Source: a virus (taxonomy: Duplodnaviria; Heunggongvirae; Uroviricota; Caudoviricetes). Taken from it: DNA of 6,293 nucleotides. Both the position numbers and the translations under genes were made by a program. Shown piece after piece: positions 1 to 933 of the stretch; the stretch's first letter is position 1, and each line of letters opens with the position of its first letter. A model generated the notes under the pieces. That model was not told the origin of the DNA and ran no database searches. It saw only the letters and a program-made list of their open reading frames with translations. Location: positions 1 through 6,293 of the IMG/VR virus record IMGVR_UViG_2671180921_000022; one strand, 5' to 3'.

Positions 1-696
1 TCACTTCGGGTAAGGCTGAATCCTGGATAGCTTGGTGTTTAGGCGCTTTTTTGCACGCTTATTCAGGAATCTGATGTAGCGATACTGATTAAATTTGTGT
101 ACCACGGCCCGCTCCTTATTAGCCCGCAAATACTCGCCTCGTTGCCCTCCGCGCTTAATCGCGTTCATCGCTATCTCGTGATACCACTCGCCGTCCAGCT
201 CGTAGAACGTGCTTTCATGGCTACCAATAAAATCAAAATTCGACGCCTGATATACCACGCCAGCACGTCCGCAGCGTTCGTCTGCAAAAGACTGAACCCA
301 CTCAACTGACGGATACAGTAACCTGATAACTTTCAGCGCGTAGCTGATAGCCCGTGATTCAGAATTGCGGGGCATGTCGTCGTGTAGCCACATGCGGTTC
401 AGTTCCATGTAACCCCGGTTATCTGTTTCAAGCACGACACGACGCCCTGAGTTGGGATTAAGGGCATATCCCCACTGAAGAACGCCAACCAGATCACGTC
501 CGCTGAATACGCCCAGATGCAGGTAGGAGTTATTCACAAAACGGCGGGAATAATGCTTTGTCTGAATGATTGTGCGGGCCAGCCAGCAGGATATGGTTTC
601 AACGCGCAACTCCTTTGAACCATAGCCGACAATCCGGCCTTCATACTCAATAACGCAGGGTTTTGTCAGAATGCGTGATTTCTTCTCTTTTCCCAC
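1..696 (-). CDS. mom: Mom-like DNA modification protein (Mu Mom family); 231 aa if started at GTG 696..694, stop TGA at 3..1
   Basis: Long minus-strand ORF directly downstream of, and overlapping by 50 nt, a clear com homologue. The track ORF (1..738) opens with TTG; the first in-frame ATG is at 726 with no Shine-Dalgarno. GTG at 696..694 has GGAG 7 nt upstream and gives 231 aa, which is the length I recall for Mu Mom. Protein identity beyond synteny and size is from memory. Confidence 0.75.
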
Positions 697-832
697 AATA
701 CAGCTCCGTGGGATGCTCTTTGGCATTCGATATGACAATGTAACGTTTACAGCGAGGGCATTTAATTTCTATATGCTTAAAACCTCCTTTAAACAGTAAC
801 TTATTGCAGTTCTTACAGCGAACAGAGTCCAT
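647..832 (-). CDS. com: Com zinc-finger translational activator of mom (61 aa)
   Basis: ATG at 832..830 preceded by AGGGAG. Product [61 protein letters not shown] has CxxC-x15-CxxC and is near-identical in pattern to remembered Mu Com (..[22 protein letters not shown]..). The track ORF start at 865 is a GTG with no RBS and is less likely. Confidence 0.85.
691..713 (-). promoter_or_regulatory. Translation-inhibition hairpin sequestering the mom start codon and Shine-Dalgarno
   Basis: Minus-strand RNA 713..691 is UCCCAC-GGAGCUGUAUU-GUGGGA: a 6-bp stem (713-708 pairs with 696-691) and an 11-nt loop. GGAG is in the loop and the GUG start forms the 5' end of the 3' arm. This matches the Com-relieved occlusion mechanism known for Mu mom. 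Confidence 0.5.
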
Positions 833-905
833 GATTCTCCCTGTGTAATAACCAGATACGACCACCCGGAGGGCTGGGGATATTTAACCACACATGATGT
901 AAAAC

Positions 906-933
906 GACGATCGATATGATGGTATCGATCGTC
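906..933. promoter_or_regulatory. Perfect 11-bp inverted repeat with 6-bp spacer carrying two Dam (GATC) sites; candidate methylation-sensitive operator for the com-mom promoter
   Basis: GACGATCGATA (906-916), spacer tgatgg, TATCGATCGTC (923-933); the arms are exact reverse complements. GATC at 909-912 and 927-930. The element lies 74-101 bp upstream of the com ATG in the only sizeable non-coding gap of the window (833-973). Confidence 0.5.

Follow-up and report, generated by a model that had tools for sequence, protein, structure and literature searches.

A probable GUG start codon within a putative translation inhibition hairpin, next to a putative Com-binding hairpin, at the com-mom junction of a Mu-like prophage

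In phage Mu, the mom gene is preceded and overlapped by com, and a translation inhibition structure (TIS) at the com-mom junction was published in the models of Hattman (1991, 1999) and of Wulczyn & Kahmann (1991), to the extent that PMC6483171 summarises them. According to the same summary, binding of the Com protein is thought to destabilise the TIS. Purified Mu Com binds the hairpin RNA in vitro, its target as defined by SELEX is CC(N)2-3GAG in a hairpin loop, melting of the TIS was not seen by SHAPE with truncated Com, and GUG is used as the start codon of Mu mom (PMC6483171). An analogy with HIV-1 Tat-TAR was drawn by Hattman and by PMC6483171. As with Com, a small protein recognises a short bulged hairpin with a 6-nt loop and a CC(N)GAG-like sequence and activates expression; Tat-TAR, on the other hand, belongs to a eukaryotic virus and works at the level of transcription elongation, shows no homology to the Com system and involves no sequestration of a start codon.

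Here we analysed a stretch of 6,293 nucleotides from the viral record IMGVR_UViG_2671180921_000022, referred to as the window. The com-mom operon of a Mu-like prophage is encoded on its minus strand. Over the first 1 kb, identity to the com-mom region of Mu, D108 and SfMu is about 88%; over its whole length, the window shares about 90% identity with Mu-like prophages located beside yehQ in E. coli RefSeq genomes, which share with it the same neighbourhood of baseplate and tail-fibre genes followed by com-mom. At the level of the 130-nt junction, the window is identical to two E. coli loci (L005 and L006), and this junction is present in 16 of the compared sequences, the window included. Gene order and the com/mom overlap are the same as in Mu; however, the promoter region bears no sequence relationship to that of Mu and, as a further difference, com is not preceded by gin or a G segment. 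The mechanism has already been described for phage Mu and the locus is an ortholog of this textbook switch, so its novelty is low and its main value lies in the correction of the annotation. The positions given in the original prediction were correct, with the qualification that its numbers are plus-strand coordinates of features that lie on the minus strand (Table 1).

Table 1. Features of the com-mom region of the window, given in plus-strand coordinates
Feature	Coordinates	Strand	Description
mom CDS	1..696	-	Proposed start GUG 696-694, stop 3-1; 232 codons, 231 aa
mom GUG start codon (proposed)	694..696	-	TIS 3′ arm, first three bases
mom Shine-Dalgarno GGAG	704..707	-	7-nt gap to GUG; loop bases 1-4
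Upstream in-frame ATG	724..726	-	Start in RefSeq/PGAP annotation (241 aa); most likely not the start
Translation inhibition structure (TIS)	691..713	-	6-bp stem UCCCAC/GUGGGA, 11-nt loop
Com-binding hairpin (predicted)	712..728	-	G728, bulged A727, AUGC 726-723, loop CAAAGA 722-717, GCAU 716-713, C712
com CDS	647..832	-	ATG 832 to TGA 649-647; 61 aa; overlap with mom 50 nt
com Shine-Dalgarno GGGAG	837..841	-	4 nt before ATG 832; RBS annotated at the equivalent place in Mu
Inverted repeat GACGATCGATA	906..933	.	11 nt, perfect, GATC in each arm; upstream of com; from the repeat finder

An open mom frame extends from TTG 738 to the stop codon at 3-1 and includes both ATG 726 and GUG 696. The deduced protein matches the Pfam family PF25680 (Mom) with 253.5 bits over the full profile (positions 1-202 of 202) and, judged by its sequence, belongs to the GNAT-fold tRNA(Gly)-dependent adenine modification enzyme family. 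The 231-aa product is the same as the Mu Mom chain in PDB entry 8BV8 ("Methylcarbamoylase mom") except at a few positions. When the ATG form is used for the alignment, 8BV8 covers its residues 11-241 (E = 2e-154), which is exactly the product expected from the GUG. Com, on the other hand, is a four-Cys zinc ribbon (C6, C9, C25 and C28) that matches PF10122 (Zn_ribbon_Com) with 30.5 bits, above the cutoff of 22.9; it has 61 aa against 62 in Mu and shows many substitutions, and an identical 186-nt com CDS is present in RefSeq in E. coli prophages. No match was found in NCBIfam for Mom or Com. Both RNA hairpins (728-712 and 713-691) fall within the com coding sequence, in agreement with the earlier placement of the inhibitory hairpin inside the 3′ part of com (832-647).

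The inhibitory hairpin was recovered by the repeat finder as two arms of 6 nt (691-696 and 708-713) with 100% complementarity and 11 nt between them. Read as RNA, U713-CCCAC708 pairs with G696-UGGGA691 around the loop GGAGCUGUAUU (707-697), and RNAfold assigns the hairpin -9.3 kcal/mol; two G-U pairs, formed with the first two G of GGAG, can lengthen the stem. According to the prediction, the stem sequesters the start codon, with an unpaired probability of 0.01 for GUG, while the Shine-Dalgarno sequence lies in the loop and is predicted to be only partly occluded, with about half of GGAG exposed. Thus, the 6-bp stem and 11-nt loop at 691-713, with the GUG in the stem, were found as originally predicted; the embedding of the Shine-Dalgarno sequence has to be narrowed to a place in the loop and partial occlusion. 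An alternative pairing of GAAUGC (728-723) with GCAUUC downstream of the TIS, seen in a 101-nt fold of the window, was rejected as chance, being absent from the Mu fold and not kept in two close relatives (L007 and L009).

Taken alone, the TIS hairpin barely differs from chance, and an origin beyond chance is not established by it. The folding z-score of a 33-nt segment is -1.81, with 10 of 200 dinucleotide shuffles folding at least as well, and perfect 6-bp hairpins with loops of 3-20 nt occur at 7.8 per kb in the window. Folds of 101 nt are also unremarkable (z = -0.39 for the window and -1.14 for Mu). The significance of the TIS comes from conservation and homology rather than from single-sequence statistics. 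For the comparison, 176 loci with relatives of Mom (from genomes, viral contigs and metagenomes) were collected together with the window and gave 86 unique junctions, with Mom identities of 50-100%.

An alignment with the com-mom junction of Mu had been proposed as a check, and a four-way alignment showed the window to be identical to Mu in the TIS arms and in the GGAG-7nt-GUG arrangement. The loop is 11 nt in both, with 4 of the 11 nt differing (GGAGCUGUAUU in the window vs GGAGAAACAUU in Mu). The core CCCAC/GUGGG is invariant across the 42 unique Mu-type junctions except for a C-to-U change in one of them (L029), which still pairs as G-U, and the outermost pair alternates between U-A and C-G. 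Loop lengths are 11, 14, 17 or 20 nt and the loop sequences are widely divergent. One relative (L007) has 6 extra loop nucleotides 5′ of the Shine-Dalgarno sequence; it keeps GGAG-7nt-GUG and its stem folds to 10 bp.

It could be argued that the TIS has no function as RNA, the arms being conserved as codons of Com (His-Pro-Thr and Cys-Gly) and of the Mom N-terminus, with a complementarity that arose by chance. Such a reading is consistent with the modest z-score of -1.81 and the frequency of 6-bp hairpins in the window (7.8 per kb), and also with the five core pairs, which never covary, and the 3′ arm, which is doubly coding. Since the core arms are invariant and the 3′ arm codes twice, most TIS pairs are uninformative on structure, either way. 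However, in one lineage (L117) com reads both arms in another frame (Ser-His-Gly for the 5′ arm and Lys-Trp) and the arms are nevertheless kept, and the com codon that covers the GU of GUG has the form NGU throughout, while the Com residue changes with lineage among Cys, Ser, Gly and Arg. Together, these two observations mean that protein coding alone does not explain the arms. The outer pair covaries from U-A to C-G, the pairing survives the C-to-U change in L029, and the insertion in L007 extends the stem to 10 bp. In the distant clade, moreover, the Shine-Dalgarno sequence or the start codon is sequestered by entirely different helices in 14 of 21 lineages. The probing and genetics of Mu, as far as PMC6483171 summarises them, also argue against a chance complementarity, and we regard this reading as extremely unlikely.

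Adjoining the TIS, and overlapping it by 2 nt (U713 and C712), a second hairpin is predicted in a 48-nt fold. Its stem G-A-AUGC/GCAU-C and 6-nt loop size are identical to those of Mu. The loop itself is CAAAGA in the window vs CUGCGA in Mu (3 of 6 nt differ), both sequences conforming to CC(N)3GAG, which in the window reads CC-AAA-GAG. A site for Com had been expected just upstream of the inhibitory structure, and the hairpin at 728-712 provides a good candidate, with its CC(N)3GAG motif and a score of 26.4 bits (match 729-710) against a covariance model built on 28 such hairpins.

Hairpins of this type were found within 100 nt upstream of mom in 55 of the 68 junctions that contain com, in comparison with 4.6% of dinucleotide shuffles, and the motif rate inside mom was 0.54 per kb. 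The flanks, which were outside the search criteria, are conserved as well, with GA on the 5′ side in 34 and C on the 3′ side in all of the 39 unique hairpins. The arms occur in 16 combinations across the 39 distinct hairpins, among them AUGC/GCAU, GUGC/GCAU, ACGC/GCGU, AGGC/GCCU, GGGC/GCCC, GAGC/GCUC and AAGC/GCUU. For the 28 hairpins with 6-nt loops, 99.3% of the cells are paired, 4 of the 5 pairs have changed on both sides, and the pair that contains the U of the "AUG" is UA in 12, GC in 9, CG in 5, AU in 1 and UG in 1. Their covariation score was 0.492 against 0.188 for shuffled hairpins, a value reached by none of 500 shuffles and lost in slid controls, which collapsed; the covariation of the inner four pairs is biased, as these were picked by a search that requires pairing. 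Arguments for a real motif come instead from the conserved flanks, the enrichment and the specificity of the covariance model, none of which was selected by the search. In 157.5 kb the model gave 47 matches, every one of them on the mom strand and almost all immediately 5′ of mom, and it gave no match in the loci that lack com. A scan of the whole window against Rfam, on both strands and with E up to 1, gave no match, and the Com hairpin and the TIS appear to be absent from Rfam 15.

ATG 726 forms part of the 5′ arm (AUGC) of the putative Com-binding hairpin, which brings the choice of start codon into the same comparison. As had been noted earlier, this ATG has no Shine-Dalgarno sequence, since no consensus match of at least 4 nt was found 3-12 nt upstream of it, while GTG 696 has GGAG (707-704) well spaced, with a gap of 7 nt. 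The length of 231 aa originally stated for Mu Mom is the one given in the curated Mu record, GenBank AF083977.1 (Mom from GTG 35907, RBS GGAG at 35896-35899), and agrees with the start of 8BV8 at residue 11 of the 241-aa form. In RefSeq NC_000929, D108, SfMu and the PGAP-annotated E. coli prophages, those beside yehQ included, Mom is on the other hand annotated from the ATG, with 241 aa, unlike the GUG model adopted here.

According to these annotations, Mom would start at ATG 726, which would make the GUG no more than a Val codon within the gene. As a start codon ATG is stronger, no stop interrupts the frame from 726 onwards, and the recombinant 241-aa protein is active and was taken as full length (PMC13219725). 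The ATG, however, is not only without a Shine-Dalgarno sequence but also lies in a paired arm that would be covered with Com bound, and it is not conserved. In relatives the arm is GUGC, ACGC, GCGC, GGGC, AGGC or others, so that it is usually not ATG, and the 3′ arm compensates. Furthermore, an in-frame stop codon follows the ATG-equivalent position in 11 lineages, and Mom of these lineages therefore cannot start in or before the hairpin. Three of them are close relatives that share the TIS and have a TAA (L007 and L009) or TGA (L051) between the positions of the ATG and the GUG; equivalent stops are present in eight more lineages (L134, L092, L096, L175, L158, L173, L170 and L172).

What is conserved is the distance from the hairpin to the start: in most lineages a start codon with a Shine-Dalgarno sequence follows the hairpin at a distance of 15-19 nt, which is 16 nt in the window. 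Of 30 Mu-type junctions, 27 have GUG at that site, while the distant junctions have ATG in 13, GTG in 7 and TTG in 1, and distant relatives thus combine a Shine-Dalgarno sequence with an ATG at the position equivalent to the GUG. The curated Mu record and PMC6483171 also use the GUG. The original preference for GUG over ATG was upheld by this comparison, by which the prophage is judged here: a start of mom at GUG 696 rather than at the upstream ATG is supported, and we give very little credence to a start at ATG 726.

Two further start codons were considered and rejected. TTG 738, which would give the longest ORF (245 aa), has no Shine-Dalgarno sequence, and Mu has an in-frame stop there. A TTG at codon 30 of mom is abutted by AAGGAG without spacing, and Mom lacking 20 residues (delta20) is impaired (PMC13219725). 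A coding test on the 10 codons between the ATG and the GUG was dropped, as their invariance cannot separate the constraints; com third positions coincide there with second positions of the putative mom frame, which makes constraint on RNA and on protein inseparable.

The same structural paper of 2026 describes a "delta10" Mom that is active and well tolerated (PMC13219725). This form corresponds to the GUG product, and its activity means that the GUG product is functional; what was presented as a truncation is most likely the native protein. Mom residues are numbered on the 231-aa form as S114/R101 in PMC7261163 and on the 241-aa form as S124/R111 in PMC13219725, where 241 aa is treated as the full length of the active protein. 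The mis-set start of Mom has spread through automated annotation and shifts residue numbering between papers, and the gene model of the window is corrected here to a Mom of 231 aa from GUG 696 instead of 241 aa from ATG 726.

Perhaps both codons could be used, the GUG for a major 231-aa form and AUG 726, at times when the Com hairpin is not folded, for a minor 241-aa isoform. The frame between the two codons is open in the window and in Mu, and both forms of Mom are active in vitro or in vivo (PMC13219725). The arguments against the AUG apply here too, namely the missing Shine-Dalgarno sequence, the lack of conservation and the stops in close relatives, and two Mom species are not reported in PMC6483171, PMC13219725 or PMC7261163. 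We find a dual start no more credible than the ATG alone, with the same slight chance of being right, and retain the GUG as the start of mom.

The window thus presents, at the sequence level, the elements expected for com-mom control of the Mu type, i.e. a com ORF, a putative Com hairpin and a TIS. Very probably, the GUG start of mom lies in the TIS, with the Com-binding hairpin adjoining it, and Com switches mom on. For the binding of Com, the dependence on Com and the opening of the hairpin, we infer the behaviour of the window from the experiments on Mu. In the free mRNA, the GUG would be base-paired in the 6-bp TIS (713-691), so that ribosomes would initiate poorly. Com, the 61-aa zinc ribbon made from the overlapping upstream gene, would then bind the adjacent hairpin (728-712) and shift the start region to an open state. 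The translation of mom would in this way be turned on late in the lytic cycle and would proceed from GUG 696-694, by means of GGAG 707-704, to give the 231-aa Mom.

How the binding of Com might open the TIS was approached by forcing the Com hairpin in the thermodynamic model. The GUG was not exposed by this in the Mu-type clade, with a rise in only 3 of 30 junctions, and the 2-nt overlap between the hairpins therefore does not by itself explain the activation. Another way to open the TIS would be in cis, by the ribosomes that translate com (translational coupling), rather than by the Com protein. As com is translated through the whole TIS hairpin and terminates 50 nt beyond the GUG of mom, com ribosomes must unwind the structure. 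However, com terminates before the hairpin in two lineages (L167 and L146), so that unwinding in cis is not general. The Com hairpin is also conserved in the manner of a protein site: C...GA in the loop is invariant, an A is bulged and the stem covaries. In the Mu papers of 1987, mom is said to be activated by com supplied in trans. The in vitro binding of purified Com to this hairpin RNA (PMC6483171) points in the same direction. Opening in cis instead of by Com is very unlikely in our view, and we keep to Com as the activator; unwinding by com ribosomes may contribute.

The comparative data provide independent, non-experimental support for the Mu model of 1991, and they extend the Com hairpin well beyond Mu. 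In the wider set, the motif consists of a G, a bulged A, a covarying stem of 4 bp, a loop C(N)2-4GA and a closing C. In Com-Mom loci with Mom identities as low as about 50%, among them an alphaproteobacterial MAG, it precedes the mom start by 15-19 nt. In many of the distant lineages a second copy of the hairpin is found about 22 nt upstream. The minimum-energy fold of the free RNA does not contain the Com hairpin in 20 of the 21 distant lineages, and has instead a much more stable helix, which draws on the nucleotides of the hairpin and sequesters the Shine-Dalgarno sequence or the start codon. It is about an even chance, in our estimate, that the element of the window is a member of a wider family of RNA switches outside Rfam, whose ancestral form was mutually exclusive, perhaps co-transcriptional, and locked by Com, the adjacent form of the Mu type with its 2-nt overlap being derived. 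The Com hairpin, as a widespread covarying motif outside Rfam, may be worth a curated RNA family, and the tandem copies and mutually exclusive inhibitory helices of the distant lineages may merit a separate study. Aeromonas phage pAEv1818 and related loci, which have Mom with neither com nor the hairpin, were set aside as uninformative on the switch.

Upstream of com, the perfect inverted repeat with GATC in each arm (Table 1) is a candidate for a Dam-sensitive control region of the com-mom promoter, by analogy with Dam control at Pmom of Mu (PMC3378877).

When the free RNA of the 21 distant com-mom lineages, those outside the Mu-type clade, was folded, the predicted structure lacked the Com hairpin in 20 of them. 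In the same lineages an alternative helix was predicted to be far more stable (median 13.7 kcal/mol), taking up nucleotides of the Com hairpin and pairing the Shine-Dalgarno sequence (SD) or the start codon. Forcing the Com hairpin in the predicted folds increased the accessibility of the SD or the start in 14/21 lineages. These folding models suggest a mutually exclusive, possibly kinetic, RNA switch in the distant lineages, a layout unlike the adjacent hairpins of Mu and of the window.

The number of hairpins also differs. The window has a single Com-type hairpin, whereas at many distant Com-Mom loci there is a tandem pair with a spacing of about 21–22 nt, such as GGGC-CACGA-GCCC and then AGGC-CUGCGA-GCCU. 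In two of the compared loci encoding Mom relatives, L167 and L146, com stops before the hairpin, and thus the Com-type motif is also conserved outside coding sequence; in L167, the TGA stop of com doubles as the conserved 5′ flank "GA" of the hairpin. The Com-binding hairpin and the translation inhibition structure (TIS) have been characterised since 1991 (Mu work summarised in PMC6483171). Scanning the whole window on both strands against Rfam 15, with E up to 1, gave no family matches, and both elements seem to be without a curated RNA family.

Features of the compared com-mom loci and of the window (window coordinates on the plus strand)
Feature	Position	Loci or remarks
Tandem Com-type hairpins	60–90 nt upstream of mom	L155, L160, L162, L163, L165, L166, L170, L173, L174, L176, L010, L057, L145
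Com-type hairpin 3′ of com end	241–259	L167
Com-type hairpin 3′ of com end	551–570	L146
Lineages listed for the predicted alternative helix		L176, L160/L174, L167, L155/L162, L163, L170, L171, L151, L092, L090
Perfect 11-nt inverted repeat GACGATCGATA	906–933 (arms 906–916 and 923–933)	Window; ~75–100 nt upstream of com
Truncated "tail fiber N-terminal domain" ORF	974–1486	Window; pseudogene in annotation of RefSeq relatives

Upstream of com, each arm of the inverted repeat in the window holds one GATC. This motif is strongly depleted over the 6293 nt (4 observed versus 24.5 ± 4.5 expected), and two of the four sites fall inside the repeat. The repeat is similar in kind to the Dam/OxyR-controlled region of Mu Pmom, although the two sequences are unrelated. 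Four other loci (L061, L066, L073 and L088), whose Mom proteins show 78–79% identity and whose mom starts with ATG, have neither com nor a Com hairpin; palindromic GATC-rich DNA lies immediately 5′ of the gene, in the 100 nt upstream of mom. These sequences suggest that such loci keep GATC-based control but either lost Com translational control or never gained it.

The Mom of RefSeq/PGAP, and of several GenBank records, is a 241-aa protein beginning at the ATG, whereas the Mu GenBank record AF083977.1 uses GTG (231 aa); the loci concerned are L002, L003, L004, L005 and L006, and in the window the two codons fall within 694–726. This discrepancy accounts for the offset of 10 in Mom residue numbers between PMC7261163 and PMC13219725. 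The "delta10 truncation" of the latter, the same form as in PDB 8BV8, is probably native Mom. In L049 (~1125–1150), the A-run after the GUG is one A longer, so that the mom body shares its frame with a TTG lying 1 nt 5′ of the GUG and no longer with the upstream ATG; either the start is truly shifted or the extra A is an error in assembling the homopolymer.

In Mu, gin and the invertible G segment lie directly upstream of com; unlike Mu, the window prophage has neither in this region (833–1486). Its tail-fibre assembly and tail-fibre genes are followed directly by the truncated ORF and then com.
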